Origin: Bacteroidales bacterium
GTDB taxonomy: Bacteria > Bacteroidota > Bacteroidia > Bacteroidales > PUMT01
Direction: 5' to 3'
DNA: 42,333 nt
Assembly: GCA_007123885.1 (NCBI GenBank)
Contig: SLGC01000016.1
Span: 1-42,333 of the forward strand
Notes under the pieces: model-generated
What the model was told of the DNA's origin: nothing
What the model saw: only the letters and a program-made list of their open reading frames with translations
Databases searched by the model: none
Shown: in pieces, positions 6,932-40,463 of the stretch
Numbering within the stretch: the stretch's first letter is position 1
How the letters are laid out: each line of letters begins with the position of its first letter
Translations under genes and position numbers: made by a program

Positions 6932-6982
6932 AGTGGCAGGAAAGTTTTATTGAAATTAATTTAAACTTTATAAAAATCAGAT

Positions 6983-8362: not shown

Positions 8363-8420
8363 CAACAGGTCATTAGCAAATCGTTACGGCAGAATTGCAC
8401 CTGAACATAATAATATACCT

Positions 8421-9578: not shown

Positions 9579-9602
9579 TCTTATTTCCTTACTCTGGTAA
9601 CA

Positions 9603-15318: not shown

Positions 15319-15333
15319 TGCAAACCGTGAAAG

Positions 15334-16266: not shown

Positions 16267-16318
16267 GATAGCCTTCATCAGAACATCCCATAAAATATTC
16301 CTTAACCACATAAGACAT

Positions 16319-17821
16319 ATGCAAATCAGGAATAAATTAATACTTTCGGGACTACTCCCCGCCGCTTTGTTATCCATGGCAGACCAAACAACAGCAGAGG
16401 AAGGGGCCGGCAAAAAACCGAACATAGTTTTTATTTTTGCTGACGACATGGGATGGTCAGACGCTGAATACCAGGGATTCAAGACTGCCGGCCTGCACGA
16501 AACCCCCAATATTGACAGGCTCGCGTCCGAAGGTATGATACTCAACCGGTTTTATCCCTCAGCAGCAAACTGCGCACCAAGCAGGGCATGCCTGTTGACG
16601 GGCACCTATACCCCAAGGCACGGGGTTTATGTACCCCAGGGACTATCAAGGGGTGGCGATGTAAGCCGTATGCGCTGGAAAGTTCCCACACAGGGACAGG
16701 ACGATTCTTTCAATACCTTTAATGTTAGTATCAATAATGTTGATCCAGGGTTCATATCCCTTGCCGAAATGCTTAAAGAGGGTGGTTATGTAACGGCCCG
16801 CCTCGGGAAATGGCACATAGGCGATGATAACCAGGGCTTCGACCTCTCCTCTGCCGAGGGAACACCGAACTTCGTGACAAATCTCTGGGGACAGGAACGA
16901 CGATATTATACCGATGTTACAGTGGCCGAAAGATTAACCGATGCAGCGATTGATTTTATCCACGAAAACAGGGACAAACCATTCTTTCTCTACCTTGCAC
17001 ACTGGGAACCCCATACTCCTCTTGCTGCCAGACCTGAAAGAATCGAATATTTCAGGAAAAAGTTTGAGAAAATGGGAGCGGATGAGGTGGACCCGGCATA
17101 TGCGGCCATGATTGAGCAGCTTGATATAAGTACCGGAAGGATAACGGCACTTTTGAAGGCCCTGGGGCTTGAGCATAATACCATGGTGATATTCACCTCA
17201 GACAACGGGGGATTACACCGAATACCAAACAATTATCCCCTCAGGGCAAATAAAGGTTCATTTTATGAAGGAGGGATCAGGACCCCCTGTGTAATCAAGT
17301 GGCCGGGAGTTATTGAACCCGGATCAATAAGCTGGTACCCTGTGAACGGCGTTGATTTTATGCCAACTTTTGCTGAGATGGCCTCGGTCCCCGTGCCCGG
17401 CTCCCAGCCGGTTGATGGTTACTCGATCCTGCCGTTGCTTCGGGGAGAGGAAATGATCCCCTCCCACTCCGAAAGGACAATGTTCTTCCACTTCCCTCTT
17501 TATCTTGGCGGAACGGAATCCTCACTTCCGGTATACGGCGGAAGGGAGAAAAACTACTGGAGGGCCGTGCCAGGCACCACTATGATGGAAGGGGACTGGA
17601 AGCTTATATACTATTATGAATATGGGAACTTTGAGTTGTTTAACCTTGGTAATGACCTTTCGGAAGAAAATGACCTTGCTTCCGTGGAAACTGAAGTAGC
17701 AAAAAGACTGCTAAGGAAGCTGAATGCATGGACAAAAGAGGTTAATGCCCCAATTCCGGATGTGCCCAATGAAAAATTTGATCCTGACCAAACTGTCCTT
17801 AAAGAAAATTTTCAGATGTAG
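16319..17821 (+). CDS. Formylglycine-dependent sulfatase (S1), secreted
   Basis: PNIVFIFADDMG, CAPSRACLLTG, GKWHIG, SDNGG, KGSFYEGGIR; signal peptide. Confidence 0.95.
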   Translation: MQIRNKLILSGLLPAALLSMADQTTAEEGAGKKPNIVFIFADDMGWSDAEYQGFKTAGLHETPNIDRLASEGMILNRFYPSAANCAPSRACLLTGTYTPRHGVYVPQGLSRGGDVSRMRWKVPTQGQDDSFNTFNVSINNVDPGFISLAEMLKEGGYVTARLGKWHIGDDNQGFDLSSAEGTPNFVTNLWGQERRYYTDVTVAERLTDAAIDFIHENRDKPFFLYLAHWEPHTPLAARPERIEYFRKKFEKMGADEVDPAYAAMIEQLDISTGRITALLKALGLEHNTMVIFTSDNGGLHRIPNNYPLRANKGSFYEGGIRTPCVIKWPGVIEPGSISWYPVNGVDFMPTFAEMASVPVPGSQPVDGYSILPLLRGEEMIPSHSERTMFFHFPLYLGGTESSLPVYGGREKNYWRAVPGTTMMEGDWKLIYYYEYGNFELFNLGNDLSEENDLASVETEVAKRLLRKLNAWTKEVNAPIPDVPNEKFDPDQTVLKENFQM

Positions 17822-17998
17822 TAGCCTATTTGCTTCCTGGTCCGCACAGGGGGAGTGACTTAAGCAATGCAAATCCCGTGATAGTGGAGCAAATGATGGT
17901 TCTGCCGGAGCAATTTTTTGAAGGGAACAGGTCATTTAAAACCGCTCTTCCGGCACTTTGACAGGTAAATAAATTGTACAAATCATAAACAGAAAAAT

Positions 17999-19525
17999 AT
18001 GAACAAGTCAGCGCTGGCAATAAATGTTTTCTCAGGCTGCCTGCTATTTTCGGCCGGGGCAGGCTGCAGCAACCAGCATAAGGATGACCCGAAGATACCT
18101 GAGAGACCAAATATCATTTTTATTATGGCCGATGATATGGGATACGGCGATCCAGGGTGCTACGGGCAAACCAGGATAAAAACCCCCAATATCGACCGGC
18201 TTGCCGGTGAGGGCATCCGCTTTACCAATGCCTACTCAGGAAGTGCTGTATGCGCTCCTTCACGCTCAACATTGATGCAGGGTCTCCATACCGGGCGTGC
18301 ACGTGTAAGAGATAATATGTTTAACAGTTACAGGGAAACGCTTCGTGAAGGTGATTATACAGCTGCCATGATGCTGCAGGATGCGGGTTATAAAACCGGG
18401 ATGTTCGGGAAATGGGGACTCGGACTGCATGATCAGTATGGAATACCGCAAAGAATGGGGTTTGATGAGTTTTTCGGCTACCTGAACCAGCGGCATGCTC
18501 ATAATCACTATCCCGAATTCCTTTATCATAATGAAACACGGGTTTACTTCCCCGGAAACGGGATCCATCATACCAGCCGTGACCTTTACTACGGTGATCA
18601 TCCATACGATGAAAACGGGATCTGTCATCCCCTGGGCATCGATGACCCGTCAAAAGCCAAATATGCTTTTGATGTATATTGTGAAAGGTCACTGAAATTT
18701 GTCAGGAATAACAAGGACAACCACTTTTTCCTCTACCTCCCCTATACTCCCCCGCACGGCGCATTCGTCACCCCCGATCTGGGCATTTATACTCATGAAG
18801 ACTGGCCGCTGCCATACAGGGTATGGGCAGCCATGGTCACGCGTATTGACGATGAGGTGGGAAAACTACTTGATCTTCTTGTAGAGCTTGGAATTGATGA
18901 CAACACCCTGATATTTTTTACATCTGACAATGGAAATATAGACGGGCCCTCCGGACCGGACGGGATACCGGCGGGTGAATTCTTCAGTAACAGCTCTCCT
19001 ACCAGGGGGATGAAAGGAGGAATATATAACGGATCCTTCCATGTACCTTCAATTGCCCGATGGCCGGCGTATATTGAGCCCGGACAGGTAAGTGACCATA
19101 TATGGGCATTCTGGGATTTTCTGCCTACCGTTGCAGATATTATCGGGGTGCCTGTTCCGGAAAATATCGATGGGATTTCAATTCTCCCCACATTGCTCGG
19201 CATGAATGACAAACAAGAAAAGCACGATTTCCTTTACTGGGAAATAAACCGGCAACAGGCCGTCAGGATGGGCGACTGGTACGGAGTTAAAAACAGGGAC
19301 GGCAGACTTGAATTGTTTAACCTGATTGATAACCCTGCACAGGACAATGATATTTCTGCATTACATCCTGAAATAGTACAAAAAATTACAGGTATAATGC
19401 AGTCTCAGCATGTTCCCAGTGACGTATGGCCCAGTCCGGGTGAATCTGATGAGGCGTTTAAGCTCAGAATGGCCCGGCTGGGGATCAACCGCGAAGACAG
19501 GCCGGATAATGCAGGTAACTTTTAA
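17999..19525 (+). CDS. Arylsulfatase (S1) lipoprotein
   Basis: Lipobox AGAG-C; PNIIFIMADDMG, CAPSRSTLMQG, GKWGLG, SDNG, WDFLPT. Confidence 0.95.
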   Translation: MNKSALAINVFSGCLLFSAGAGCSNQHKDDPKIPERPNIIFIMADDMGYGDPGCYGQTRIKTPNIDRLAGEGIRFTNAYSGSAVCAPSRSTLMQGLHTGRARVRDNMFNSYRETLREGDYTAAMMLQDAGYKTGMFGKWGLGLHDQYGIPQRMGFDEFFGYLNQRHAHNHYPEFLYHNETRVYFPGNGIHHTSRDLYYGDHPYDENGICHPLGIDDPSKAKYAFDVYCERSLKFVRNNKDNHFFLYLPYTPPHGAFVTPDLGIYTHEDWPLPYRVWAAMVTRIDDEVGKLLDLLVELGIDDNTLIFFTSDNGNIDGPSGPDGIPAGEFFSNSSPTRGMKGGIYNGSFHVPSIARWPAYIEPGQVSDHIWAFWDFLPTVADIIGVPVPENIDGISILPTLLGMNDKQEKHDFLYWEINRQQAVRMGDWYGVKNRDGRLELFNLIDNPAQDNDISALHPEIVQKITGIMQSQHVPSDVWPSPGESDEAFKLRMARLGINREDRPDNAGNF

Positions 19526-19599: not shown

Positions 19600-21249
19600 T
19601 TAAACCGGTCCGCCCGTGATATGCTCCACTTCAACGCCGGACAGGCTTGCCCAGGCTTTAACAGTGTGCAGATGCCTGCCGTATGTCAGGATCTTGTGAT
19701 GCCCCCGAATATCCCTTACATCCCTGACATCATCCATTGCCATCACGAATGATGTCCGGCATCCCCCTCTACCGTCGTCCGGATGAGTATCGATGTTATG
19801 AAGAATAACACCCGTTGCAATCATCAGCGAACCCGGGGAGAGAAAACGCCATAAAGTAGCCGGCTGTTCTTCCCTGAACAATACCTGCGGAACGGCCCCG
19901 AAGCCTGCTTCATGGTGGCTTCTCAGTATATAGCGCTCGGGAGATTTATCGAATCCCGCCATTTGTGTAGGCGCTGTGCAATGGCCACCCGCATAAAGGT
20001 TTCTTGTGGTATCGAAGATCGGATTATGGAGAAAGCCGGGGCGGTCAAGAAGGTAGCGGCTCAGCAGCTGTGTAAGTCCGGGATAGACATCAGCCTCGCA
20101 CACTCCGACGCTGCCTTCATCGAGCAATTGCATGAAAGCAAGACATGGAGGTATCATCTGCCTGGTCGTGACGGGCCGGAAACAGTTTGTCGCAACGCCA
20201 TGGCAACCTGTTTCAGCCAACAGGCGGCGGTTGGCCACATATGCCCGTGCAGCCTGGATCAGTTCCTCACCGACCGGCTCAAGAATCCCGGCGGCAGTGT
20301 TCCTGTAAAGTCCGGCAATTTCGGTAACCTGCGGAGCGCCTTCAGTCTCCTTTTCCAGCTCCAGGTATCGTTGCATGGGGACATAGCATAATGTGGTTTT
20401 CAATGGGGCACCAAGCACCTCCTCACGTGACTGGTCGCCCGTTACAACGGCAAGCCTGGTATTGGCCATCAGCCAGCGTGCTTTTAAAATACGCAATCCT
20501 TCAGCCAACCAGTCCGCATCAGAGCTTCCTGCAAGAAAACAGTACTTTGAATCACGGAATGGTTGGTATTTATCCGGATTAGAGTGAAGAGTTCCATGAG
20601 GGATGAATCCCAGCACCGGCAAATCGAGATCTCCCCTTTTTTCAAGTACACGGTTAAGACCCTGCATTCCATAGGTCTGCGCTTCCATGTTTATCAGCAC
20701 TATTCCGTCGGCTTTCCTGGCGATTGCACGGGCAAGAAAGAGGTCAGCCTCCTCATCATTGCCAATTCGTGCATCCAGCACATCCAGGTTAACACCCATG
20801 TCCGCTGCGGACCGCCGGAGAGTTTCCGTGTATAATGCCTGACTGGCATCCGAGTCATATTCCCTGCCCGGCCATCCTGTTTCCATATATTCACCAGGAG
20901 CTGAACGTGAGAAACCCACACATACAAGCGGTTTATTATTACCAGTCCCGGGAACAGGCGGTAGTCCCTGTACCTTGCTTATTCTATGGCTCAGCGGACT
21001 TCCGGCAACCGGGGTTACATTGCCGGCGGTGATTTTGCCTGGCACACTGTTCACCCTGCCAGTTGCCAGTACACCACCGGTGGCACTGAAGGCAAGGGCA
21101 GCTCCTCCTGCCAGTCCGATCCTCGCCAGAAACTCTCTCCGCCCGGAGGAGGAACAACATCCGGAGGAAGAATGCTTATCATTAATATCCTGTGATTTAT
21201 AACCGGACCTTTTGTTGATCCGGTCAACATTTTTAGATGCTTTTTTCAT
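19600..21249 (-). CDS. L-fucose/L-arabinose isomerase-like protein with Tat signal
   Basis: GRREFL Tat motif plus hydrophobic stretch; NCF, PCL, CEAD, HCTAP, CRT, GHH motifs of FucI/AraA-like proteins. Start uncertain (21294 or 21249). Confidence 0.7.
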   Translation of the reverse strand: MKKASKNVDRINKRSGYKSQDINDKHSSSGCCSSSGRREFLARIGLAGGAALAFSATGGVLATGRVNSVPGKITAGNVTPVAGSPLSHRISKVQGLPPVPGTGNNKPLVCVGFSRSAPGEYMETGWPGREYDSDASQALYTETLRRSAADMGVNLDVLDARIGNDEEADLFLARAIARKADGIVLINMEAQTYGMQGLNRVLEKRGDLDLPVLGFIPHGTLHSNPDKYQPFRDSKYCFLAGSSDADWLAEGLRILKARWLMANTRLAVVTGDQSREEVLGAPLKTTLCYVPMQRYLELEKETEGAPQVTEIAGLYRNTAAGILEPVGEELIQAARAYVANRRLLAETGCHGVATNCFRPVTTRQMIPPCLAFMQLLDEGSVGVCEADVYPGLTQLLSRYLLDRPGFLHNPIFDTTRNLYAGGHCTAPTQMAGFDKSPERYILRSHHEAGFGAVPQVLFREEQPATLWRFLSPGSLMIATGVILHNIDTHPDDGRGGCRTSFVMAMDDVRDVRDIRGHHKILTYGRHLHTVKAWASLSGVEVEHITGGPV

Positions 21250-21502
21250 TTCAGATATGGTTATTATATTCGGAAGGCTTTTAGGTACCGTCATATATCA
21301 ATATTAACCAAACCTACAAAAAAAGAGCTAATTATCCCAACAAATCTTTTGGTGTCAGGTTACATTTTTATAACGTTCTTTGAAGCATCAACTATTGATA
21401 TATTCTCTAATCAGGGTCCGGCCAACAGAACGAAAAACCGGAAGCATACCCCGGACCGGATGAGGGGATGTGTTAAGTGTGTGTGTCCGCCAATTCCGGC
21501 TG

Positions 21503-22603: not shown

Positions 22604-24013
22604 TCAGTCCCAGTCGTCAGTCCGGAATGATGAAGCAGGCAAACCCTCAGTGTTGAAAAGTTCACCAATAACAAAATCTTCAAAAGCATATCTTACTGCT
22701 ACGGGATTTGCAACCTGTGGAGCAGACAAGGTTATTCCCTCCCTTGTGATAAATGCATTGGCATTATGGAAAATCCGGTTTTCTCCGGCTACCTTAAAAT
22801 TTACAAGTTCACGGCCAAATGTGGTAAGACCGTTTGCCGCGTGGTTAAATGTCAGTTTCACCATGCTACCTTCAATTTCCATTTCTTTCAATACGGGCCC
22901 TGAACATTCAAAACCGGACATATTATAGGTTTTAGCAAGTGCGAGATATGCAAGGCGCTGGCCTGCTGCCTTTTTACCGGCAGGATGGATGAAATTCTTA
23001 TCTCCTGCATCCATCAGGCTTGCCATTCCTGTATTAGGCAGTACAGTGGAAGCCTTCAGCTGTGCCTCCCGCAAGAAGGCAGAATTCACAGTTGAAACTC
23101 CGTAATCAAATGGGGCAATTTGCACGTAATAGAATGGCATCTCCCCTATTCCGAATTCATTGCGCCAGTTTTCGATCAACCCAGCCATTAACCCGGCATA
23201 ACGGTCAGGTTCAAGCCGGTTAGATTCACCCTGGTACCAAAGTACTCCCCGGGCAGAAAAGCCGGTAAGGGGCTTGATCATCGCGTTGTACAGTACTGTT
23301 GGCAGTTGTTGCGAAAAATCGCCGGTTTGACTTTTATCAGGAAGTGTAACCCAGTCAAACTTTTTAATACCCTGCTCACTCATCCATGGTTCAATACGAG
23401 TGCCTCCCCAGCTTGAATTAATCATTCCCACCGGTACTCCAAGTGCCTGATGTACCATTTTAGCGAAGAAATATGCTGTGGCACTGAATTCTGAAACATT
23501 TACCGGAATACATTCCTGCCATTGACCGGACAGATCATCGAGTGGATCGAGGCTTTTATTGCGGCTTACCGTAAATAGTCTTATGTTATCATTTCCTGAA
23601 GTGACAATTTCTTCATTTGATCCGGTAATCGGTTCATTCCGGTAACCCTTCATGGGCATAACCATGTTTGACTGACCTGAGCAGATCCAGACTTCACCAA
23701 TAAGAACATTGGAAAGCTTAAGCTCCTGACCATCTGATATAGTGATCTCATATGGCCCGCCGGCAGAAGGGGTTCTTACCCTGATTTCCCAGGAGCCATC
23801 ACCGCCAGCCCGGGTTTCATACATTTGATCATCCCATGAGGTAACAATATCAATATAGCCTCCGGGAGAAGCTTTCCCCCATATCGCCGCATCAGTTTGC
23901 TGCTGCAGTACCATATGGTCGCCAAATATGGCCGGCAATACTATTTCTGCCCTTAAGTTGAAGGCAAAAACTCCGGTAAAAAGAATACTAAAAAGGATCA
24001 GTCTGATTTTCAT
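22604..24013 (-). CDS. Sialate O-acetylesterase (SASA/SGNH family), secreted
   Basis: LP..FGDHMVLQQ, GEVWICSGQSNM, WGGTRIEPW, LYNAMI.P, WYQGESN, LREAQ, IHP, P.AVRYA, GLPASSFRTD. Confidence 0.92.
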   Translation of the reverse strand: MKIRLILFSILFTGVFAFNLRAEIVLPAIFGDHMVLQQQTDAAIWGKASPGGYIDIVTSWDDQMYETRAGGDGSWEIRVRTPSAGGPYEITISDGQELKLSNVLIGEVWICSGQSNMVMPMKGYRNEPITGSNEEIVTSGNDNIRLFTVSRNKSLDPLDDLSGQWQECIPVNVSEFSATAYFFAKMVHQALGVPVGMINSSWGGTRIEPWMSEQGIKKFDWVTLPDKSQTGDFSQQLPTVLYNAMIKPLTGFSARGVLWYQGESNRLEPDRYAGLMAGLIENWRNEFGIGEMPFYYVQIAPFDYGVSTVNSAFLREAQLKASTVLPNTGMASLMDAGDKNFIHPAGKKAAGQRLAYLALAKTYNMSGFECSGPVLKEMEIEGSMVKLTFNHAANGLTTFGRELVNFKVAGENRIFHNANAFITREGITLSAPQVANPVAVRYAFEDFVIGELFNTEGLPASSFRTDDWD

Positions 24014-24484
24014 GATTTTAATTTTCGTGTTCTTTGTATGATGAGGTCATTATTAACTGGTAAAAGTCGTAATATTTCATGACTGATAAATTACTTTAAG
24101 GAAATTTTTCAATTAAAAATAACCAAAAATAGAATTTAATATATAATAAGTGGTGAAATTACCAGACACAATCGATCTGGAAACAGTCTGATATTATTTG
24201 GAATGAACATAAAAAACCTGATAAACAGTCATTAAAATTGACTGAGAATAACGAGGGTTATTGCTGGCATTTTAGTGGTATCAGATTGTGGATAAATACT
24301 ATCTCTCTCTACTGATCCGCATTTATTAAAAAGTTCAGGCTTTCTGTAATATCATCACTGCCTGCTGAAATATGAAGTAAAAAAAACAAAACAAAAAAAT
24401 TTAATTTAGAGAGTATTTTATTAAACCGGTAATTTATTTATCTTGGCGTCATTTAATATTCTTACCAAACTCAAAACTTTAGCG

Positions 24485-25234
24485 GTGGAAACAGATTACA
24501 GAATAAGTTTTTTCAAACCTACCACGCAACAGGCCAAAATGAACAGAAATCTCATTATCAAACTATTCATAGCCTGGGCAGTTGCTATTTTCGGATTTCA
24601 GATCTTGTTGAAAATTATAGAAAAGCCGGTACCCGAGGAGGCACTTGTGAGGTTCATCCCTGCGTGGCATAGAATAGAAGCAGGCCTGGGAACTGATAAT
24701 GACCTGCAAGACATCGGTCGATCAATGGTTCAGGTAACCGGCAAACTGACCCTGGAACCTGGTGAATATGCCATACTTAAAGATGGCATAAGCTGGACAC
24801 TGTCTGAATTATTACCCGAACATGAGCTTGCTGACCTTCAGGAAAGTGTAATACGATTAAACAGGTTAAGAGAAGAGATAGTCTCATTGCAGGATCCTGA
24901 GTACCTGGCAGCAAAAGAATCTGTCATTTCAACGGCAGCACCCGCGCTTGATATTGGCGAGGGCACATTGTTAGCGCAGTTGCTGGCAATAGGTCTGGTT
25001 GAGAATATGGCTGTAATGGAGGATCAAAGCAGGGAAAGGATACCAGAGATAATGAGCCTTTACTTGACCCATAACCGGTCAGTGCTGACCGACACAATTT
25101 TCCTGGGGTTTCCTTTCCATTATTTCTACTCGGCAGTCTTCCTTCTCGTGTTTTTTATAGGATTGTGCTGGATCTATTGCCATCGCACCGATAAGCTGCA
25201 TGCCAGGCTTAACTTCCTTGAAGCTCACGATTAA
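24485..25234 (+). CDS. DUF4212-like solute:Na+ symporter small subunit with large extracytoplasmic insertion
   Basis: TM1 'NRNLIIKLFIAWAVAIFGF' and TM2 'LGFPFHYFYSAVFLLVFFIGLCWIYC.RTDKL' resemble the two halves of DUF4212, separated by about 160 soluble residues. Directly upstream of an ActP-like symporter. Start uncertain (TTG 24443, GTG 24485 or ATG 24539). Confidence 0.7.
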   Translation: METDYRISFFKPTTQQAKMNRNLIIKLFIAWAVAIFGFQILLKIIEKPVPEEALVRFIPAWHRIEAGLGTDNDLQDIGRSMVQVTGKLTLEPGEYAILKDGISWTLSELLPEHELADLQESVIRLNRLREEIVSLQDPEYLAAKESVISTAAPALDIGEGTLLAQLLAIGLVENMAVMEDQSRERIPEIMSLYLTHNRSVLTDTIFLGFPFHYFYSAVFLLVFFIGLCWIYCHRTDKLHARLNFLEAHD

Positions 25235-25265
25235 TCATAATTACAAACCATGGATTTAATTTAAC

Positions 25266-26933
25266 ATGAAAAAAATATATTTTCTCTTATTTATGTTTTT
25301 GCCGCTGGCAGCCAATGCAACTAATGATGCAACACAGCTGGAAGGCAGTTTTAGAGTAGGTCCGGCAATCATCCTTATCTTCATTTTGACTTTGTTTGTT
25401 CTCGTAGGCATATTGTTCCGTGCCAAAGATACGACCGACTATTACGCGGCGGGACGGGGAATTTCCCGCGTAGGTTCGGGTATGGCTATTGCCTCCAACT
25501 GGATGAGCGCAGCTTCTTATCTTGGAATGGCTGCACTGATGTATGGTACGGGGTATCACGGACTGGCATATGTTGTGGGATGGACAGGTGGATACGTGTT
25601 ATTACTGATACTGATGGCCGGCCAGATAAGGAGATACGGCAAATACACGGCGGCCGATTTTATAGGCGACAGGTATTATTCCCAGACTTTGCGGACCATA
25701 ACTGCAGGTATTGCCATTGTTATTTCAATTGCTTATGCCGTAGGACAATTCGGAGGCATAGGTTTAATGTTCAGGTGGGTACTGGGGATTGATTATATCA
25801 GTGCCGTGATAATTGGAGGTTCGGTTGTTCTGGCATATACACTTATATCAGGCATGCTTGGTGTTACAAAAAACATGCAGATTCAATATGTGATCATAAT
25901 AATTTCATTTTTAATACCCCTGTTTATCCTTACCGCCAGATTTGATTATTTTTGGCTTCTTCCCCAGATAGGCTATGGTTCTGTTGTGCAGGATATTGTA
26001 GAAGGGATCAGCATTGCCGATAAACCTGGCTTGTATAATTCGCTTGGTCATCATTTTGCCATCGTTCCCAGTCCGGAATATGCCATGCCCTGGGATCCTT
26101 CAACCAGGCAAACATTTTTTCAATGGATGGCTATAGCATTTTCTCTTATGATAGGAACAGCAGGGCTACCGCATGTAATACAGCGGTTTTATGTCGTGCC
26201 CAAAGCCGTCGATGCCCGCTGGTCGGTTGTGTGGGGTCTGTTTTTCATCTGCGTGCTTTACTGGAGTGCCCCGGTATATGCGGCTTTTGGGAAAATATTG
26301 TCTTCAAATCCTGAAGTAGGAAAACTTGCTCCCGACGCCATAGTAGTTTATACTGCCCAACTGGGTGCGGTAAATCCATTGATCGTCGGACTCCTGGCTG
26401 CAGGTGCGGTATCTGCCGCTTTCTCAACCACATCGGGTTTGCTTGTGGCAGGGGCATCTGCATTTGCTCATGATCTTTACGTTAAAGTGATCAATCCTGA
26501 GGCTAAACCAAAGACACAAATGATAATTGCCCGCCTGAGCACCATTCTTATGGCGATCATTATCGCGGCCATTGCCATGGCGAACCTGGCACTGATCGCT
26601 CAACTTGTTGCCATAGCCTTTTCAATGGCAGGATGTACAATATTCCCCATGTTTCTACTCGGTATCTGGTGGAGTGGTTCAAACCGGGCCGGTGCAAAGG
26701 CCGGACTGATTGCCGGGGGAATTGTGACTTTGGTATCGCTGACTTATCTGATTGGCGCCAGGGCAGGATGGGTCCTTCCATATAATGATTTTATCTCCTA
26801 TTATCTCGGGGCCTGGTATTTTGCATGGATAGGCGCACCCCTTGCTATTCTTGTCCATATTATCGTATCAAAATTAACGGAAGAGACACCCATTGAAATC
26901 AGGAAGTTCTTAATTGAAAAAGTGCACTCTTGA
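25266..26933 (+). CDS. Cation/acetate symporter, ActP-like (SLC5 YjcG/VC_2705 subfamily)
   Basis: DYYAAGR, GMAIASNWMSAASYLG, GWTGGY, YGKYT..DFIGDRY, GTAGLPHVIQRFY, AAFSTTSGLL, AHDLY, LLGIWW. Confidence 0.88.
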   Translation: MKKIYFLLFMFLPLAANATNDATQLEGSFRVGPAIILIFILTLFVLVGILFRAKDTTDYYAAGRGISRVGSGMAIASNWMSAASYLGMAALMYGTGYHGLAYVVGWTGGYVLLLILMAGQIRRYGKYTAADFIGDRYYSQTLRTITAGIAIVISIAYAVGQFGGIGLMFRWVLGIDYISAVIIGGSVVLAYTLISGMLGVTKNMQIQYVIIIISFLIPLFILTARFDYFWLLPQIGYGSVVQDIVEGISIADKPGLYNSLGHHFAIVPSPEYAMPWDPSTRQTFFQWMAIAFSLMIGTAGLPHVIQRFYVVPKAVDARWSVVWGLFFICVLYWSAPVYAAFGKILSSNPEVGKLAPDAIVVYTAQLGAVNPLIVGLLAAGAVSAAFSTTSGLLVAGASAFAHDLYVKVINPEAKPKTQMIIARLSTILMAIIIAAIAMANLALIAQLVAIAFSMAGCTIFPMFLLGIWWSGSNRAGAKAGLIAGGIVTLVSLTYLIGARAGWVLPYNDFISYYLGAWYFAWIGAPLAILVHIIVSKLTEETPIEIRKFLIEKVHS

Positions 26934-27700
26934 ATTTGAAGATAACTTCTGTAAATAGAGGAACGCTAATTGTCATTTCTATCATGACATTTCTGGCTGC
27001 AGCGGGTATAATTTTCGCCCGGTCGTACTATGGCGATATCAACCGCTCGGTCGATCCAAGGGTTAAACCTGCTAAAGTATTATACGGCCGGTATAACCTT
27101 TATGCTTCGGAAAATCAGCACAACAAAGTATTTGCCTTGCTTGACAGCATAAAAGATATTTATGCTGCCGTGCCTCATTACAGGGATTCATACGAGAAAG
27201 GAGTCATCGAGAATAACCGGGCATCGGTTTATCTTATGATGGCGCTTTCAGATTCACTGAATAAAGAGTTAAGGGAAATTTATTTTGCCCTTGCCGAAAA
27301 ACATCTGCTTGCGGGGATAGAATTATATGATCGATGGCTTGACTTTTTCGGCAGTCTTGCCATGGAGAAGATATTGCTTATCGTTGAAGATGAGTTCAGG
27401 AATGATGAAATACTTTCAGTAAATGAGAATCTCGATGCAATTATCAAAAACAGGGTAAAGGAAATCCAGACTGCACAATTTGAAACAAGAAGAAGGTTGT
27501 CGGTAAGTTATACCAACCTGGGGATTATAAGACGTCATGAGAACAACCTTGAAGAGGCATATAGCTACTATACGCAAGCCCTGGATATGTGGGCCGAAAA
27601 TCATGCCGCCAAAAATAATATCAATATCCTGTTTGGCCGGCCGGTTGAAAAACAAAGCTTCATGAAGAGATTGTTCCCGCCCGACAGGAATAAGGAATGA
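26930..27700 (+). CDS. Membrane-anchored tetratricopeptide repeat protein
   Basis: N-terminal transmembrane helix; TPR-like SYTNLGIIRRHENNLEEAYSYYTQALDMW...AAKNN; overlaps the symporter stop codon. Confidence 0.75.
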   Translation: MNLKITSVNRGTLIVISIMTFLAAAGIIFARSYYGDINRSVDPRVKPAKVLYGRYNLYASENQHNKVFALLDSIKDIYAAVPHYRDSYEKGVIENNRASVYLMMALSDSLNKELREIYFALAEKHLLAGIELYDRWLDFFGSLAMEKILLIVEDEFRNDEILSVNENLDAIIKNRVKEIQTAQFETRRRLSVSYTNLGIIRRHENNLEEAYSYYTQALDMWAENHAAKNNINILFGRPVEKQSFMKRLFPPDRNKE

Positions 27701-27722
27701 TAGTGCGCATAAAATTATTCAT

Positions 27723-28994
27723 ATGAGAAAATGTATAATACCGGTATTTTTGTTAATAGCAATCCTGGATCCATGTTTTACAAATGCCCAGGAAAACGGG
27801 CAGGATGGTTTTGCGGTAAAATTCGGCGGATTCATAAAAAATGATTTCTTTTATGATTCCCGCCAGACGGTCGCCGCGAGAGAAGGACATTTCATGTTAT
27901 GGCCGGCAGCACCCCTATACGATCTGGAGAACAGGGACACAAATGAAGCTTCGAGTTTTAACTTTTTGTCGATCCAAACCAGGTTAAATGCTGCCATTTC
28001 TATTCCTGACGCCTTTGGAGCTAAAACTTCAGGGATGGTCGAGGGTGCATTTTTCGGTCATTCCAATCCCGATATCAACGGTTTCAGATTGAGACATGCC
28101 TGGGTAAAATTTAACTGGGATAACACCGAACTATTATTCGGACAATTCTGGAACCCCCTGTTTGTTACTTCAAACTTTCCCGATGTTGTATCCTTTAATA
28201 CAGGCTGCCCCTTCCAGCCCTTTTCAAGAAACCCCCAGGTGCGCCTCACACAAAGTCTTGGCGATTTCAGGGTTATTGCCTCGGCTCTTTCCCAACGTGA
28301 TTTTGCAAATGTCGGGCCCTGGGGTGCGTCCTCATCCTACCTGCGTAATTCAACGATACCCGACCTGCACGCGCAGGTACACTACGTGCATGGAGGTGCA
28401 GGCATATTAACACAGTTTATAACCGGGGGAGGAATTTCATACAAGAAAATCGTTCCCGAACTTCTAACTCAGCAAGGGTATATAACTGATGCAGGGGTTA
28501 CGGGAATTACCTGGATGGCTTTCGCCAGGGCCGCTTTTCAACCGGTCACGGTAAAAGCGCAATTTATTGCAGGACAAAATGTGACCGACCTTCTTATGAT
28601 CGGTGGCTACGGTATAAGCAGGATTATCAACCCGGAGAGGGGATTGGTGGAGTATGTTCCATTGCAGACCACATCATACTGGATTGATATGCATACAAAC
28701 GGACAGACGCTGCAGTTCGGTATTTTTGGAGCAATATCAGAAAACCGCGGAGCAACGGATAATCTTGCTGAAGGTACAACAGTAACGGGATTTGGAACTA
28801 ATATAAAATCAACGTACCGGGTTTCACCGAGGATCATCTTTAATTCAGGAAGAGCCCGTTTTGCCCTCGAAGGGGAATATTCGGCTGCAAATTTCGGAAC
28901 TATCGATCTGGTAAGGAACAGCAAGGGTATCCCTGTCGATGTAGACCAGGTTGCCAATTTCCGTGTACTTTTAGGTGTGTATTTATTTTTATGA
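27723..28994 (+). CDS. DcaP-like outer membrane porin
   Basis: Signal peptide; FGGFIKND..YD, QTRL, EG.FFG, FRLRHAW, LLFGQFW.P, RNPQVR, PDLH; amphipathic C-terminal strand. Confidence 0.7.
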   Translation: MRKCIIPVFLLIAILDPCFTNAQENGQDGFAVKFGGFIKNDFFYDSRQTVAAREGHFMLWPAAPLYDLENRDTNEASSFNFLSIQTRLNAAISIPDAFGAKTSGMVEGAFFGHSNPDINGFRLRHAWVKFNWDNTELLFGQFWNPLFVTSNFPDVVSFNTGCPFQPFSRNPQVRLTQSLGDFRVIASALSQRDFANVGPWGASSSYLRNSTIPDLHAQVHYVHGGAGILTQFITGGGISYKKIVPELLTQQGYITDAGVTGITWMAFARAAFQPVTVKAQFIAGQNVTDLLMIGGYGISRIINPERGLVEYVPLQTTSYWIDMHTNGQTLQFGIFGAISENRGATDNLAEGTTVTGFGTNIKSTYRVSPRIIFNSGRARFALEGEYSAANFGTIDLVRNSKGIPVDVDQVANFRVLLGVYLFL

Positions 28995-29002
28995 TACTTT
29001 TG
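28995..29002 (+). promoter_or_regulatory. Internal -7 box TACTTTTG upstream of the phosphoesterase/NTase pair
   Basis: TAnnTTTG immediately after the porin stop and 19 bp before the ATG at 29022; TTTAG about 20 bp upstream. Confidence 0.5.
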
Positions 29003-29021
29003 CGGGGTTAATAAAATACTC

Positions 29022-29771
29022 ATGAAAATAGGATTGTTGTCTGATATTCATGAAGACGTTATATCATTGCAGAAAGCTCTCGATATCCTGATTCGTAAAA
29101 GTTGTGCCCCGATAGTTTGTCTTGGCGACATTACCGGGTTTTCCAATCCCTACTACCCGTTTGGCGACACCAGGGATGCAAATGCCTGTATCGATCTTAT
29201 AAGGCAAAACTGCCAGGTAGTTTTATCAGGCAATCATGATCTTTATACGGCAGGAAAATTAACCGGGTTCAGGTCGGGTATTGAGTATCCTGCTGACTGG
29301 TTCAGCAGGAAGATATGTGAAAGAACCGGTTTGCTCGGAGATAAAATATGGCTGTATGAAAAAGAAATCATGCCTGAGCTGACTGATGAGAACAGAGATT
29401 ATTTAAAAGCACTCCCGGAATACCATATTTTAAACACTGATGATGGTCTGAATATTCTGCTAAGCCATTTTATTTATCCTGATATTTCAGGATCTTTAAG
29501 AAAAAGGATCGATGATATTTGCGATTACCGCAGTCATTTCTCGTTTATGCTGCAAAACAATTGTAACTTGTCCTTTGCCGGGCATATGCATAAAGAGGGA
29601 TTTGAAATAGTCAACAAAACAGGATGCAGGGAATATGGGTTTGAAAAAAGAATTCTTAAACGAACCGGTTCATTTATCGGTTTGCCTTCGGTAGCCCGGA
29701 GCAGGAACAGAAACGGGATTGCGGTTTTTGACACAGAAAGTTTTGAGCTGGAAACTATAAGACTGAAATAA
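29022..29771 (+). CDS. Calcineurin-like metallophosphoesterase (Metallophos_2 type)
   Basis: SDIH, CLGDITG, GNHD, SH and GHMH motifs all present. Confidence 0.9.
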   Translation: MKIGLLSDIHEDVISLQKALDILIRKSCAPIVCLGDITGFSNPYYPFGDTRDANACIDLIRQNCQVVLSGNHDLYTAGKLTGFRSGIEYPADWFSRKICERTGLLGDKIWLYEKEIMPELTDENRDYLKALPEYHILNTDDGLNILLSHFIYPDISGSLRKRIDDICDYRSHFSFMLQNNCNLSFAGHMHKEGFEIVNKTGCREYGFEKRILKRTGSFIGLPSVARSRNRNGIAVFDTESFELETIRLK

Positions 29772-29852
29772 AACGTTTTTAATGACGGGTACATCTGTCT
29801 GAATTGCGGGGGACCGTAACGGATCATTAATAAAGGAATCAATTAAAATATC

Positions 29853-32312
29853 ATGAAGAGGGTATTTATCGCTAAAGTAATCGTGCCGGCCGTAATGGTT
29901 ATCGTACTTTTTGTTACCCTGTATTCAATGGTTTTCCTTCCAATGGTCGAAAAGGGATTCATGGACCGGAAAAAAGAGATGATAAGGGAATTGACCAATT
30001 CGGTTTGGAGCGTCATTGACGAATACCATCAGGAAATTGAAAGGGGAAATCTTTCTGAAGAGATGGCAAGGGAAATGGCAGTGAACAGGGTGAAATTTAT
30101 CAGGTATGGGGATGAAGGCAAAGATTATTTCTGGATCACAGACATGGAGCCAGTAATGATAATGCACCCTTACCGTACCGAATTAAACGGTGCGAATATT
30201 TCTGAATATACCGATCCCCAGGGGACCATGCTGTTTGCCGAGGCGGTTGAGAAAGTCAGGGATACCGGAGACGGCTATATAGATTACTGGTGGCAATGGA
30301 AAGATGACAGCACCAGGATTGTTCCCAAACTTTCGTACGTCAGAGGCTTTGAGCCATGGAACTGGATAGTTGGTACAGGTATTTACCTTGAGGATGTAAA
30401 GGATGAGATGAACATGATAAGAGGAAGCCTTGTCAGGACCACTCTTCTTTTCGCTGTACTCATCGCTGCAATAGTTTTTTATATTACCCGGCAAAGCTTG
30501 GTTACAGAACGGGGGCGTATCGATGCCGAGGAAAAACTCAAACAATCCCGTCTGAAATACAAAAAGCTTGTGGAAGCTTCTACCGAAAGTACAATGATGT
30601 GGCTTAACGGCTCATTGATTTATTTTAACAAGCCGATCCTTGAGCGTACGGAATACTCTGAACAGGAGCTCCTGACGAAGAGTATGGGTGAATTGTTCTG
30701 CCTGCAAAATGGCGTCATTGAAGAATTTTGCCATACCATCGATCAAACCCGTAACACCGAAGCCATGCTTATTACCAGGAAAGGTGAAAAGGTTGGTGTT
30801 GTGTTAACGGTATCGAGAATAGAAATTAACGACAGGCAGGGATTCATTTTTATAGTTAAGGAGGTAACACGTCATCTGCTCAGGGATAAATCGGTCCAGA
30901 TGCTTCAGGAGGAGATGCGGTCTTCCATGCTGCTTATGAACTCGCCGGTCAGGATGTTTGTCCGCGGTCCCGAAAAGATTGACATGGACCAGTCTATTTA
31001 TGAAGCAGCTGACATAATGGGCAGGAAGCAGACAGATTTGCTTTTTGTAACAAGAAAAAGGAAGGAGATAATCGGCATTTTGTATAATGATATTATTATC
31101 TCAGGGATCGTGGCAGGCAGAATGGATCATGACACGAAGGTTTTTAATGTGATGAGGTCACCTGTTAAATATATCCGGGAAAATCTTCCGCTTTTCGAGG
31201 CACTGTTATTAATGGAAAATGAAGACCTGGAATACCTGGCCGTGAGGAATGACGAGCTACAGGTAACTGGATACATTGGGAAAAAAGAGCTTCTCGAAGC
31301 GCAGCAGAACCACTCGCTGATATTGATCAGGAAAATTGAAAAGGCTGAGACGATCGGCCAACTTCAATCATTATATGATAAGCTGCCCGGAATAATATCC
31401 CTGCTTCTTGGCAATGATTCAAATTACCGGAATATAGCACAGGTTTCAACGGCCGTATCAGATGCAGTAACTAGAAGGTTGATTGAACTTACAATTGAAC
31501 GGACAGGTGCCCCGCCTGCCGGCTTCGCCTTTGTTTCTCTTGGAAGTGAAGGAAGAGAAGAACAGACGCTTAAGACAGACCAGGATAATGCTCTCATATA
31601 TGAGGGTGAGAAAACTAACGAGGCTGATGAATATTTTCACGAACTGTCTGAAAGCATTAACAAAGGGTTAAACGATATTGGCTACGATTATTGCAGGGGG
31701 AAAATAATGGCGGGCAATCCCCGGTGGTGTCAGCCGGTATCAGTGTGGAAGGAATATTTTAGCGAGTGGGTCGAGAATAGTGATCCTGAAAGTATCCTTG
31801 ACACCTCCGTTTTTTTTGACCTGCGTTATGTTTATGGCGACAGGTCGCTGGTTGATGAACTAAAAAAAGAGATAACAACCATAACCGATTCCAGGGCGGT
31901 TTTTTATACCCATTTGGCCCAATCGGTGCTCCGGCATAAAACGGTCACCTATTCAGAGAAACAGGAAACCCTTGATCTGAAAAGGGCAATAATGCCGATA
32001 GTTGGTTTTGCAAGGGTTTATGCCTTGAAGAATAATGTGCACGAAACAAATACCATTTACCGGTTGAAAGGGATAATTGGTCTGGAAAAAATCAGCAAGT
32101 CATTCGTTGAAGAAATTATCGAGGCCTACCAGTATCTGATGTTCCTGAGATTCAGGCTGCAAACACAGAAAATTCTTTCCAATGAAAAGCCTGATAATCT
32201 TTTGAGGCCCGATGAACTGTCCAATATCGAAAAGGCTGCCCTCAAGACTGTTTTATCAGGAATTACATCAATACATACACAGCTGAGTTTCGATTTTGAT
32301 GTGACGATATAA
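29853..32312 (+). CDS. Membrane sCache_2-PAS-CBS-DUF294 nucleotidyltransferase-like signalling protein
   Basis: TM1; sCache_2 (RYG..GKDYFWI..MIMHPY..LNG...D.QG...F...G.GYIDYWW....PKLSYVRGFEPWNWIVGTGIY); TM2; PAS (KYKKLVEAS..N...TEYSEQELL); CBS pair; DUF294 NTase (LGSEGREEQTLKTDQDNAL, C.GKIMAGNPRW); DUF294_C (FFDLR, DLKR, TNTIYRL, AYQYL..LR). Confidence 0.88.
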   Translation: MKRVFIAKVIVPAVMVIVLFVTLYSMVFLPMVEKGFMDRKKEMIRELTNSVWSVIDEYHQEIERGNLSEEMAREMAVNRVKFIRYGDEGKDYFWITDMEPVMIMHPYRTELNGANISEYTDPQGTMLFAEAVEKVRDTGDGYIDYWWQWKDDSTRIVPKLSYVRGFEPWNWIVGTGIYLEDVKDEMNMIRGSLVRTTLLFAVLIAAIVFYITRQSLVTERGRIDAEEKLKQSRLKYKKLVEASTESTMMWLNGSLIYFNKPILERTEYSEQELLTKSMGELFCLQNGVIEEFCHTIDQTRNTEAMLITRKGEKVGVVLTVSRIEINDRQGFIFIVKEVTRHLLRDKSVQMLQEEMRSSMLLMNSPVRMFVRGPEKIDMDQSIYEAADIMGRKQTDLLFVTRKRKEIIGILYNDIIISGIVAGRMDHDTKVFNVMRSPVKYIRENLPLFEALLLMENEDLEYLAVRNDELQVTGYIGKKELLEAQQNHSLILIRKIEKAETIGQLQSLYDKLPGIISLLLGNDSNYRNIAQVSTAVSDAVTRRLIELTIERTGAPPAGFAFVSLGSEGREEQTLKTDQDNALIYEGEKTNEADEYFHELSESINKGLNDIGYDYCRGKIMAGNPRWCQPVSVWKEYFSEWVENSDPESILDTSVFFDLRYVYGDRSLVDELKKEITTITDSRAVFYTHLAQSVLRHKTVTYSEKQETLDLKRAIMPIVGFARVYALKNNVHETNTIYRLKGIIGLEKISKSFVEEIIEAYQYLMFLRFRLQTQKILSNEKPDNLLRPDELSNIEKAALKTVLSGITSIHTQLSFDFDVTI

Positions 32313-32356
32313 GCTGAACAAACCGGAACAACCCGAAGATACTTCCCTGGTTCGGC

Positions 32357-33205
32357 TTAAGGAATGTGAATTTTACTGGCAGATGATACAGATGAGACCT
32401 GGAAAAAGCCCCTGGCCCCCTCGCTCAGGTTGGTGGGGATATTGGCGGGAGGGGCTCCGGCAAAAGGATTGCCGGAAAGCTCGGACTGGGAAAAGAAATC
32501 ATTATAAAAATTGTATTGTTCCCTTGATATGCTTCTCATTTTAAGGGTAATTTTGTCTCCACGGCTTAAATCGCTCCGTCGTATTGGCCTGATATACATT
32601 GACGTATAACCCTTAAGATGTGTATCATTAATAACGGTTTTTTGCGACGGGGTATACGTTTGGATGTCATCGTTGACATAAAGGTTTATAAGATAAAAGT
32701 TTCCCCGGTCAGGTAAATTTTCAAAATGAATATATATATCAATCAGTTCTTCATTTATTATTCCCAGGCGTGAAAGAAGATTGACCCTGGTCGTGACCGA
32801 ATCGATTTCTGGAACAGGTTTTATGGTGCTGCTGGCGGTATATGTCCCGCCTGCATCATGGACGGTAAGGTAATATTTATTACCTGTTACCAGGGATGAA
32901 CTCAGTTCATAATTATAATATCTTTCCTTGTGGGAGTTCTTTTGGGTAAAGTAATAATTTTTTTTGCCGTCAGTGATCAAAACAACTGCATCACTGGCGG
33001 GAAACCACTTTCCGGAATCATAAAAGGATGTGGAATGGCGCAGCCTTACCTCCTGCCTGACGCCGGAATCATCTATATTGGCCTCTACAATAAGATACTT
33101 ACCCTCTGTGTCAGATAAATCAAGTATGACATTCTTCTCACATGAAAGAAGAACGACAGCCAGAAAAAATACTAATAACCCGGTTATATATTTTATAAAA
33201 TCCAT
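32357..33205 (-). CDS. DUF4249 family lipoprotein
   Basis: Lipobox LLS-CEK; IVEANI, VPEIDSV, PPANIPTNL..GARGFF; downstream of a TBDR. Confidence 0.85.
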   Translation of the reverse strand: MDFIKYITGLLVFFLAVVLLSCEKNVILDLSDTEGKYLIVEANIDDSGVRQEVRLRHSTSFYDSGKWFPASDAVVLITDGKKNYYFTQKNSHKERYYNYELSSSLVTGNKYYLTVHDAGGTYTASSTIKPVPEIDSVTTRVNLLSRLGIINEELIDIYIHFENLPDRGNFYLINLYVNDDIQTYTPSQKTVINDTHLKGYTSMYIRPIRRSDLSRGDKITLKMRSISREQYNFYNDFFSQSELSGNPFAGAPPANIPTNLSEGARGFFQVSSVSSASKIHIP

Positions 33206-39350: not shown

Positions 39351-40463
39351 CTAGCTCACAGGAATTTTCAGTTCAAAGGAATTACCATCCCCGTGATTAC
39401 TTTTTGCTGATACCTCTCCCCCGTGGGCTTCCACTACCTCCTTTACAAATGCCAGGCCAATTCCCCAGCCACCTCCCGCTTCATCAATTTTATAATAGCG
39501 GCCGAAAATAGCATCAAGGACATCAGCCGGGATTTGCCTGCCAAAGTTATGTACCGTTAATTTGAAAGAGTTGTTTTCTATATCACAGTAAACAGTTATT
39601 GTGGATGATTCGTTACCATGCCTGATTGCATTACCCAGTAAATTATTGAAGGCACGGATAAGCAAATTATTATCAAGCTCCACAATAATTTCATTTCGAT
39701 TGGATCTTAGCTCTATTTTTCTTTTATGAGCAGTCTTAAAAATGTGGATCTCTCTTTCCAGTTCATCCAGAATATTGGTTTTTACTTTATGTAAAGGAAG
39801 CTTTGCAGACGGGGTAACTGTGGCTGCATCCAGGAAATCCTTAATTAATAATTCCGCCTGATGAAGGCTGCCTTTTAATATCTGCAATATTCTATTTACC
39901 TGGTCAACCTCAAGATCATCTTCGAGCAAATTAATGCAGCCTTTGATATTATTTAGTGGTGTATTCAAATCGTGTGTGATCGACTGAATGAAATCTTCAC
40001 GATTTTCATCCTGCAGCTCCAACTCATCTGCCTTTTTTTCGGCGATACTACGCGCATTTATATATACCTCCTCCCTGATCCTGAAATAAGTTTCAGCAGC
40101 CTGTTCAATAGCGTTGTCCATCACCAACATGATAGTATCTCTTTCTGCCGGATCAATATCTTCATATTCGCCGGCAACACGAAATATCTCATTTTTTAAC
40201 AGATTATATTCCCGGATAACCTGTTTTAATGAATAAATCCTAAGGTCACTCCTTTGCATGGCGTGCTGTTGGGAATAAACCGGAATGCGGCTGGTATCAG
40301 GATTTTCCAGTGCGTAAATAATTGCATCTATCAGATCCGGAATGCTGTTTTTAATAATCGATTCATCATAGTTAGTAACTTCCGGAATTTCCCCTGCAAT
40401 CCTCTCCAGCCACCTCCTGATTATCTCCTCCTTATGTTTCCTGACAACTTCGGCAATTTTCAT
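39351..40463 (-). CDS. Cytoplasmic histidine kinase, RsbRD_N + HisKA + HATPase
   Basis: N-terminal 'EEIIRRWLERI...IPDLIDAI...HAMQR....YSLKQVIREY..L'; H-box THDLNTPL; N-box NLLGNAIRHG; GWGIGLAFVKEVVEAHGG; no transmembrane segment. Confidence 0.88.
   Translation of the reverse strand: MKIAEVVRKHKEEIIRRWLERIAGEIPEVTNYDESIIKNSIPDLIDAIIYALENPDTSRIPVYSQQHAMQRSDLRIYSLKQVIREYNLLKNEIFRVAGEYEDIDPAERDTIMLVMDNAIEQAAETYFRIREEVYINARSIAEKKADELELQDENREDFIQSITHDLNTPLNNIKGCINLLEDDLEVDQVNRILQILKGSLHQAELLIKDFLDAATVTPSAKLPLHKVKTNILDELEREIHIFKTAHKRKIELRSNRNEIIVELDNNLLIRAFNNLLGNAIRHGNESSTITVYCDIENNSFKLTVHNFGRQIPADVLDAIFGRYYKIDEAGGGWGIGLAFVKEVVEAHGGEVSAKSNHGDGNSFELKIPVS

Follow-up and report, generated by a model that had tools for sequence, protein, structure and literature searches.

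A predicted carboxylate-sensing membrane receptor with a DUF294 nucleotidyltransferase output, encoded in a Bacteroidales symporter operon

Proteins of the COG2905 type carry a CBS pair, DUF294 and DUF294_C behind an N-terminal cNMP domain. Soluble forms with an adjacent RNase_T-like exonuclease are known from Pseudomonas fluorescens (Pflu5625), P. alloputida (PP_0354/PP_0353) and P. aeruginosa (the PA3232-PA3235 cluster, in which PA3233 would be the DUF294 protein). Here, we describe a membrane-bound relative (the receptor) encoded on contig SLGC01000016.1 of a Bacteroidales bacterium (PUMT01; assembly GCA_007123885.1), within a stretch of 42,333 nt referred to below as the window. The open reading frame (ORF; 29853..32312, + strand) specifies 819 amino acids (aa), comprising a transmembrane (TM) segment, an sCache_2 domain, a second TM segment (TM2), a PAS domain, a CBS pair, DUF294 and DUF294_C. 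The CBS pair-DUF294-DUF294_C module is common to both: cNMP-bearing representatives match the C-terminal 475 residues of the receptor at E about 1e-71 to 1e-80, with 33-36% identity. Common features also include a link to carboxylate-uptake genes, a nearby symporter with a small membrane subunit (TIGR03648 and TIGR03647 genes), and a phosphodiester-cleaving partner. However, the receptor has a membrane-anchored sCache_2 domain and a PAS domain in place of the cNMP domain, its partner is a calcineurin-like metallophosphoesterase and not the adjacent RNase_T/DnaQ-like exonuclease of the COG2905 forms, and genes for a DcaP-like porin and a TPR protein are additional members of its operon. The receptor is a membrane-bound, Cache/PAS-gated variant of the known but unexplained cNMP-CBS-DUF294 module, with a metallophosphoesterase replacing the exonuclease, and probably detects acetate-like acids outside the cell.

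Pflu5625 belongs to the CrbS/R acetate regulon of P. fluorescens, and its detailed characterization has been called for (PMC5715377); CrbS/R corresponds to MxtR/ErdR, and PP_0354/PP_0353 fall under the same short-chain-acid regulon (10.64898/2026.09.07.749794). PA3232-PA3235 are upregulated about 16-fold on propionate (10.1101/2022.08.25.505149). In a preprint of September 2026, which still calls the function of COG2905-type Pseudomonas proteins unclear, no genes depend more strongly on MxtR/ErdR than PP_0353/PP_0354 (10.64898/2026.09.07.749794). Price et al. report a role for DUF4212-type symporters in growth on lactate and D-alanine, together with cofitness between these symporters and a neighboring COG2905 gene (10.1101/072470). 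No publication on a Cache-fused DUF294 form was found in the literature searched, which left out most subscription journals.

The two halves of the receptor have further relatives in other signaling systems. The sensor domain is 35-37% identical to those of PscD, McpP and Adeh_3718, with Z about 24 over its whole length, but the output of these proteins is an MCP signaling domain and that of the receptor a nucleotidyltransferase (NTase); for this reason the response of the receptor cannot be chemotaxis via CheA. The N-terminal 230 residues resemble the sensor region of MctS (E 6e-28). The MctS/MctR and CrbS/CrbR systems share with the receptor a tie to monocarboxylate transporters, but the receptor scores only 97 bits against an MctS cut-off of 700 and has neither a histidine kinase nor a response regulator, so its control would be enzymatic rather than transcriptional. 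A chemoreceptor or a histidine-kinase sensor, considered for the likeness to MctS and CtpM, was rejected since neither an MCP nor a kinase domain is present. The C-terminal half shares with GlnE, GlnD and DrrA a Pol-beta NTase core, a helical C-terminal domain and a G-S...D-x-D metal-binding motif, at only 12-14% identity. The sensor-controlled, reversible protein nucleotidylation of GlnE and GlnD is the logic that we propose for the receptor too. Unlike GlnE and GlnD, the receptor contains no ACT, HD or second NTase domain, and removal of the nucleotide would fall to a separate phosphoesterase.

Sensor and output domains of the receptor

The initial annotation of the gene had proposed the order TM-sCache_2-TM-PAS-CBS-NTase, and Pfam domains, hydropathy and an AlphaFold2 model bear this out. 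All domain coordinates that follow are on the + strand. The sCache_2 domain occupies aa 37-189 (29961..30419; Pfam, 137.1 bits against a cut-off of 25, E 6e-40) and is also identified by structural matches. The PAS domain (aa about 235-339, 30555..30869) is matched by PAS_9 at aa 252-339 (33.7 bits, cut-off 27, E 5e-8) and by the NCBIfam model TIGR00229 (28.9 bits, cut-off 22.9). A CBS pair follows at aa about 366-486 (30948..31310), where Pfam CBS matches in two stretches (42 bits, cut-off 24; best stretch 432-484, E 1.2e-10). Behind it lie the DUF294 NTase core (PF03445; aa 512-646, 31386..31790; 154.3 bits, E 2e-45, with the same coordinates in a whole-genome search) and the helical DUF294_C domain (PF10335; aa 699-815, 31947..32297; 97.9 bits, E 6e-28), both above their Pfam cut-offs and together aligning to GlnE and DrrA. 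A search of the whole genome to which the window belongs found no second DUF294 match. Up to E = 1, Pfam returned no match to a cNMP, kinase, GGDEF or MCP family, and the lack of these output domains noted in the initial annotation thus stands.

Hydropathy places two membrane segments at about 1-34 and 188-218, which match long helices at 2-63 and 179-242 in the AlphaFold2 model (48 homologs as input; mean pLDDT 81.6, pTM 0.50). Basic residues occur at the N-terminus and behind TM2. A predicted N-in topology, with the Cache domain outside (periplasmic) and the remainder inside (cytoplasmic), fits these features.

A sequence search of the PDB matched four sCache_2 sensors: Adeh_3718 (4K08, E 1e-33), PscD (5G4Y/5G4Z, E 5e-29), 2QHK and 4EXO. 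The modeled Cache domain superposes on acetate-bound 4K08 with Z 24.6 and rmsd 1.2 over 144 residues, and on propionate-bound 5G4Y with Z 24.2. In PscD, the ligand carboxylate is hydrogen-bonded by Tyr90, His103, Tyr143 and Lys156, the ligand is sandwiched by Trp92 and Trp145, and the pocket is closed by Phe126; these seven residues are identical in the C2/C3-carboxylate binders PscD, McpP and Adeh_3718 (PMC5062169). Taking this published list (Y90, W92, H103, F126, Y143, W145, K156) as reference, a HMMER alignment to 5G4Y finds all seven contact residues in the receptor (Y92, W94, H105, F128, Y145, W147, K159). In the family alignment they are invariant across 48 homologs of 41-91% identity. 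The YFW, MHP, DYW and PK residues highlighted in the initial annotation align with the carboxylate sensors 4K08 and 5G4Y, and the carboxylate-type pocket that it proposed is supported by the seven conserved contacts. Because the PscD-type pocket residues and the Cache fold are both conserved, a C2/C3 monocarboxylate is, on sequence grounds, the likely ligand.

The catalytic motif of the NTase reads G564-S565-x10-D576-x-D578 and lies inside the DUF294 core (31542-31586, + strand). It is intact, as previously noted; its spacing had been given as x11, a miscount by one. A loose pattern of this kind, GS-x(9-12)-DxD, was found in 551 of 20,000 shuffles of the receptor protein, and the bare motif is therefore weak evidence. 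It gains weight because it is located inside the DUF294 match, and because G564, S565, D576 and D578 are invariant in 48/48 aligned homologs, as is D656, a candidate third carboxylate. The motif also fits G-[SG]-x(9-13)-D-x-[DE], a pattern that describes NTases.

The PDB sequence search with the whole receptor returned no solved relative of the DUF294 half, and fold comparison alone identified such structures. In the predicted model, the C-terminal half aligns with the N-terminal domain of GlnE (1V4A: Z 28.6, rmsd 3.1, 333 residues), the GlnE adenylylation domain (3K7D: Z 26.3, rmsd 3.5, 325 residues) and the AMPylation domain of DrrA (6YX5: Z 26.0, rmsd 3.2, 290 residues), with Foldseek E-values of 7e-9 to 6e-8. 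These matches, at Z 26-29, agree with the Pol-beta NTase fold predicted in the initial annotation; since they were found, a lack of that fold, which would have spoken against the annotation, is not what the model indicates. GlnE and DrrA are the only NTases among the matches listed, which comprise the best 50 rows of each fold comparison; because CBS and Cache matches dominate these lists for the 819-residue model, other NTase families may also be similar. The CBS pair itself matches CBS structures at Z 16-17.6 (for example, 2EF7), a likeness that is uninformative on which ligand binds. Scores against the NCBIfam equivalogs of GlnD (12.8 bits, cut-off 631) and GlnE (10.8 bits, cut-off 625) place the receptor in neither family. 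Taken with the architecture, the model suggests a catalytically intact, GlnE/DrrA-type NTase.

Family, operon and recurring phosphoesterase partners

More than 120 clusters at 90% identity have the full architecture, at 40-100% identity; the names they bear are all generic ('DUF294 nucleotidyltransferase-like domain-containing protein' and 'PAS domain S-box protein', for example). In a sample from the same order, 49 of 201 genomes contain a match at E up to 1e-20, a count that includes partial and cNMP-type matches, and a single alignment over the whole query was obtained in 17, the window's genome among them. Relatives are encoded in at least 575 of 600 candidate stretches from species-representative genomes, of which 80 loci in named genomes were kept for neighborhood counts. 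The 80 belong mostly to Bacteroidales and other Bacteroidota, with Ignavibacteria/Melioribacteraceae, Chlorobiota, Desulfobacter latus, KSB1, Sumerlaeota, Elusimicrobia, Victivallales and Planctomycetaceae also represented. At one of them (L063; D. latus, NZ_JACADJ010000008.1, 6163-18458), about four paralogous receptor matches are spread over both strands of some 12 kb, three with a Cache match and one with the NTase part only.

A search with the C-terminal 475 residues reached 4072 clusters (50% identity) at a threshold of E 1e-3; tightening this to 1e-30 left 1382. The best 148 representatives at 50% identity (P0122-P0269; the two nearest, P0003 and P0059, being excluded) were labeled by local phmmer, which assigned 80 as Cache-NTase, 17 as PHP-Cache-NTase, one as RNase_T-Cache-NTase, 13 as cNMP-NTase, one as GDSL-NTase, and 36 as the NTase region only (fragments or PAS-only forms). 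Pfam confirmed the architectures on 22 sampled representatives, including five PHP forms. A Cache N-terminus is thus found in 98-99 of the 148, the higher figure at a laxer threshold. Together with the 575 or more loci, this bears on the earlier description of the NTase as an unusual output class for Cache receptors: it is uncommon, but it is not rare. The GDSL form (P0241, 702 aa) has a GDSL-like lipase/acylhydrolase domain fused ahead of CBS-DUF294, at the usual place of the cNMP domain. In a FastTree of 143 C-terminal regions, all but one of the 17 PHP-fused forms share a single clade of 30 rows, and the cNMP forms a single group of 20; having many weakly supported forks and a midpoint root, the tree was not used to order events.

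In the window, the receptor is the last of six same-strand genes (+) with successive gaps of 31, -4, 22, 27 and 81 bases, an operon that the initial annotation had not mentioned. The first gene (24443..25234) encodes a DUF4212-like small symporter subunit of 263 aa if TTG at 24443 is its start, which is uncertain. DUF4212 is matched at 218-255 (Pfam, E 5e-10), the TIGR03647 score is 30.4 bits (cut-off 26.05), and hydropathy places membrane segments at 36-60 and 218-249. Subunits of this type are typically about 80 aa long, and the Pfam model has 79 positions, whereas those of the window and of four related loci (L032, L033, L036, L038) have 250-263 aa, with the extra ~150 residues placed between the two membrane helices. 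This long form is kept in Bacteroidota relatives, where tblastn matches span query residues 16-260 at 35-45% identity. The large subunit (25266..26933) is a VC_2705-family sodium/solute symporter (TIGR03648, 479.5 bits against a cut-off of 320.75; Pfam SSF, E 4e-46); the next-best NCBIfam families, ActP and MctC, each score far under their own cut-offs.

A membrane-anchored TPR-like protein (26930..27700), the gene of which overlaps that of the symporter by 4 bases, has weak TPR matches, all under Pfam cut-offs, and one N-terminal hydrophobic segment (10-33); it accompanies the DUF4212-type symporter in related loci. The next gene (27723..28994) encodes a 423-aa probable DcaP-like outer-membrane porin. 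It has no Pfam or NCBIfam family, but hydropathy shows a signal-like hydrophobic segment at its N-terminus, and its sole PDB sequence match is the DcaP-like 6EUS (E 3.7e-4, residues 85-186). The porin and the VC_2705/DUF4212-type symporter are expected to import C2/C3 monocarboxylates, the chemical class predicted to bind to the sCache_2 domain of the receptor. A scan of 23900-32500 returned 22 promoter-like sites (19.0 +/- 4.8 in shuffles) and 11 terminator-like sites (7.7 +/- 3.2); since these counts are no higher than in shuffles, the scan is uninformative on transcription units.

Directly upstream of the receptor lies the gene of a calcineurin-like metallophosphoesterase (29022..29771; 249 aa; Pfam Metallophos, E 1.6e-10), a cytoplasmic protein with no membrane segment. 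Its metal-site residues D8, H10, D36, N71, H72, H149, H188 and H190 are invariant in 33 orthologs. A PDB sequence search returned nothing under E 0.38. The nearest solved folds to its predicted model (pLDDT 93.9) are the uncharacterized 3RQZ (Z 21.8) and 1NNW (Z 18.2), followed by the Ap4A hydrolase/phosphodiesterase SapH (3QFM, Z 18.0) and by MJ0936 and YfcE (Z 15.4); the nucleases Mre11/SbcD match lower, at Z about 10-11. The protein is a candidate for the enzyme that reverses the NTase reaction. Complex prediction with the CBS-NTase part of the receptor (aa 360-819) gave a score of 0.00 against a mark of 0.32, which was counted neither for nor against binding.

The pairing of receptor and phosphoesterase recurs. 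Among 18 same-order neighborhoods (16 Cache forms and two cNMP forms), 12 of the 16 Cache loci have an adjacent Metallophos gene, eight found by BLAST and four by Pfam; in the latter four, a longer receptor with two PAS domains stands beside a convergent Metallophos gene. An SSF symporter is present in 11 of the 16. One receptor (L047, 1150 aa) has RNase_T fused at its N-terminus and no separate partner, while both cNMP forms have an adjacent RNase_T gene; RNase_T partners were seen in only three of the 18 neighborhoods (L047, L048 and L049). At L049 (8584-17484), the soluble cNMP-CBS-DUF294 gene and its adjacent RNase_T gene lie ~4 kb from an 820-aa Cache-containing protein that is followed by a LuxR-type response regulator, which may represent a carboxylate two-component system beside the soluble module.

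Across the 80 loci, an adjacent phosphoesterase occurs in 56 (54 Metallophos, two PHP), a symporter in 41, and a homolog of the porin in 32. Restricting the count to the 33 loci flanked by 5 kb or more on either side gives a phosphoesterase in 24 cases, a symporter in 25 and a porin in 18, with a small subunit of the DUF4212 type in 19 and of the DUF485 type in five. The partner symporters belong to two subfamilies, VC_2705 with DUF4212 and ActP-like with DUF485. At one locus (L043), an acetyl-CoA synthetase gene (6596-8518; ACAS_N and AMP-binding) stands directly upstream of a long-form receptor, together with an ActP-like symporter with DUF485, a metallophosphoesterase and a porin.

In 13 loci flanked by 1 kb or more on either side, BLAST detected no partner. 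Nineteen of their 26 flanking ORFs were scanned with Pfam, the other seven being already labeled as porin or DUF485. A convergent, downstream AP_endonuc_2 gene (xylose-isomerase-like TIM barrel) is present in four of these loci (L076, 10903-11724; L082, 7668-8594; L088, 9842-10648; L101, 10874-11695); its presence there may be coincidental or may point to a fourth type of partner. Apart from these four, and from two loci taken up below, no gene of the Metallophos or AP_endonuc_2 type was found among the Pfam-scanned flanking ORFs of the 13.

Three unrelated phosphoesterase folds (Metallophos, PHP and RNase_T) thus occupy the same partner position, fused or adjacent. Because they do, the product of the NTase would be expected to bear a removable phosphodiester bond, and this is the strongest argument for its chemistry.

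Proposed function and its rivals

From the architecture, pocket conservation, NTase fold and motif, operon conservation and recurrent phosphoesterase pairing observed here, we infer a mechanism in which the ligand, the nucleotide, the target and the sign of regulation are the conditional elements. The periplasmic sCache_2 domain would bind a C2/C3 monocarboxylate (acetate, propionate, pyruvate or lactate), as its pocket identity suggests. The order of the domains suggests that TM2, the PAS domain and the CBS pair relay the signal to the GlnE/DrrA-type NTase, which may transfer AMP or UMP onto a protein that serves carboxylate uptake or activation. Removal of the nucleotide would be the task of the metallophosphoesterase encoded just upstream, making the switch ligand-gated and reversible. 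The PAS domain as signal receiver and the CBS pair as reader of adenylate energy charge are roles suggested by domain names. Our tentative reading, to which we give a probability of about 0.45, is therefore a carboxylate-gated, reversible nucleotidylation switch acting on the machinery of carboxylate uptake or activation.

Several points weigh against this reading. Neither this analysis nor the cited passages of the literature identify a target protein, a nucleotide or a product. The affinities of PscD and McpP for their ligands differ despite identical pockets (PMC5062169), and the exact ligand is therefore not readable from sequence. No symporter lies within 8 kb in eight of the 33 well-flanked loci, and nine of these 33 have no BLAST-detectable adjacent phosphoesterase; a divergent Metallophos gene was found by Pfam in only two of the 13 loci lacking a BLAST partner. 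The nearest folds of the metallophosphoesterase are uncharacterized proteins or nucleotide and diester hydrolases, and none is a known de-AMPylase. Phenotypes of the soluble homologs are weak: deletion of Pflu5625 had a negligible effect on growth on acetate (PMC5715377), and mutants of the soluble homologs studied in the September 2026 preprint were only moderately defective, on propionate and pyruvate (10.64898/2026.09.07.749794). The substrates usually associated with RNase_T and PHP are nucleic acids or free nucleotides, which fits two rival explanations at least equally well.

It is because of these usual substrates of RNase_T and PHP that a nucleotide messenger and an RNA substrate both come into consideration. 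On carboxylate sensing, the NTase could make a small nucleotide signal, such as an oligonucleotide (linear or cyclic) or a nucleotide-bearing metabolite, which the phosphoesterase degrades. All three recurrent partner folds are known for cleaving nucleotide phosphodiester or pyrophosphate bonds, the nearest characterized fold of the metallophosphoesterase is the Ap4A hydrolase/phosphodiesterase 3QFM (Z 18.0), ahead of MJ0936 and YfcE (Z 15.4), and the Pol-beta superfamily includes messenger synthases. Yet GlnE and DrrA, which among solved folds resemble the NTase most closely (Z 26-29), are AMPylators of proteins, and no messenger receptor or effector is evident in the operon, so that we consider such a signal unlikely. 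Rather less probable still is its bolder form, in which the receptor is a ligand-gated synthase of a new nucleotide messenger and the Metallophos, PHP and RNase_T partners are dedicated degraders; if true, this would be a new one-component class of transmembrane signaling, parallel to diguanylate cyclase/phosphodiesterase systems.

The pair might also act on RNA, the NTase extending a 3' end that the nuclease trims, and in this way control how strongly the symporter operon is expressed. Soluble and some fused forms are paired with a 3'-5' exonuclease of the RNase_T type, and the RNase T likeness of PP_0353 has been remarked upon (10.64898/2026.09.07.749794). However, in the window and in 54 of the 80 loci the partner is a small calcineurin-like phosphoesterase, with best matches to phosphodiesterases and phosphatases (Z 14-22) above the Mre11/SbcD nucleases, and the NTase half resembles GlnE and DrrA; we regard an action on RNA as doubtful, with odds well below even. 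The absence of a nearby symporter in eight of the well-flanked loci, and the weak knock-out phenotypes of the soluble homologs, would suit a general sensor with no tie to transporters, or a non-catalytic NTase scaffold, with the gene order incidental. Set against this are the symporters of two subfamilies in 25 of the 33 loci, the acetyl-CoA synthetase gene adjacent to the receptor in one locus, and the cofitness of a COG2905 gene with its adjacent DUF4212-type symporter (10.1101/072470). An incidental neighborhood or a dead enzyme is very improbable in view of the catalytic residues, invariant in 48/48 homologs, and of the conservation across phyla.

Remainder of the window and significance

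Upstream of the carboxylate-symporter operon, the window holds a sialic-acid and sulfated-glycan utilization cluster (709-24013), with genes for an alpha-L-fucosidase, GH123, an SSF transporter, a BNR_2 sialidase, a DHDPS-family (NanA-like) lyase and two sulfatases. An SASA sialate O-acetylesterase gene (22604-24013, - strand) is divergent from the operon. Acetate and pyruvate, the ligands predicted for the receptor, would be among the products of the enzymes of the cluster. A 564-aa ORF (19600-21294, - strand) matches no Pfam family at E up to 1e-3. At 39351-40463 (- strand), a soluble histidine kinase with RsbRD_N ahead of HisKA and HATPase_c is encoded, and no response regulator is present among the scanned ORFs.

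DUF294 (COG2905) enzymes are numerous, and in Pseudomonas they form part of the core short-chain-fatty-acid regulon. Unlike the soluble forms, the Cache-fused branch offers a ligand that is predictable from a solved pocket, a fixed membrane topology, and a partner that is either fused or separate, and so makes the DUF294 question experimentally approachable with respect to ligand, modified target and removal. If the target of the proposed nucleotidylation switch is the symporter or an acetyl-CoA synthetase, the receptor would exert post-translational control over how Bacteroidota and further anaerobes from sediments and digesters take up organic acids.

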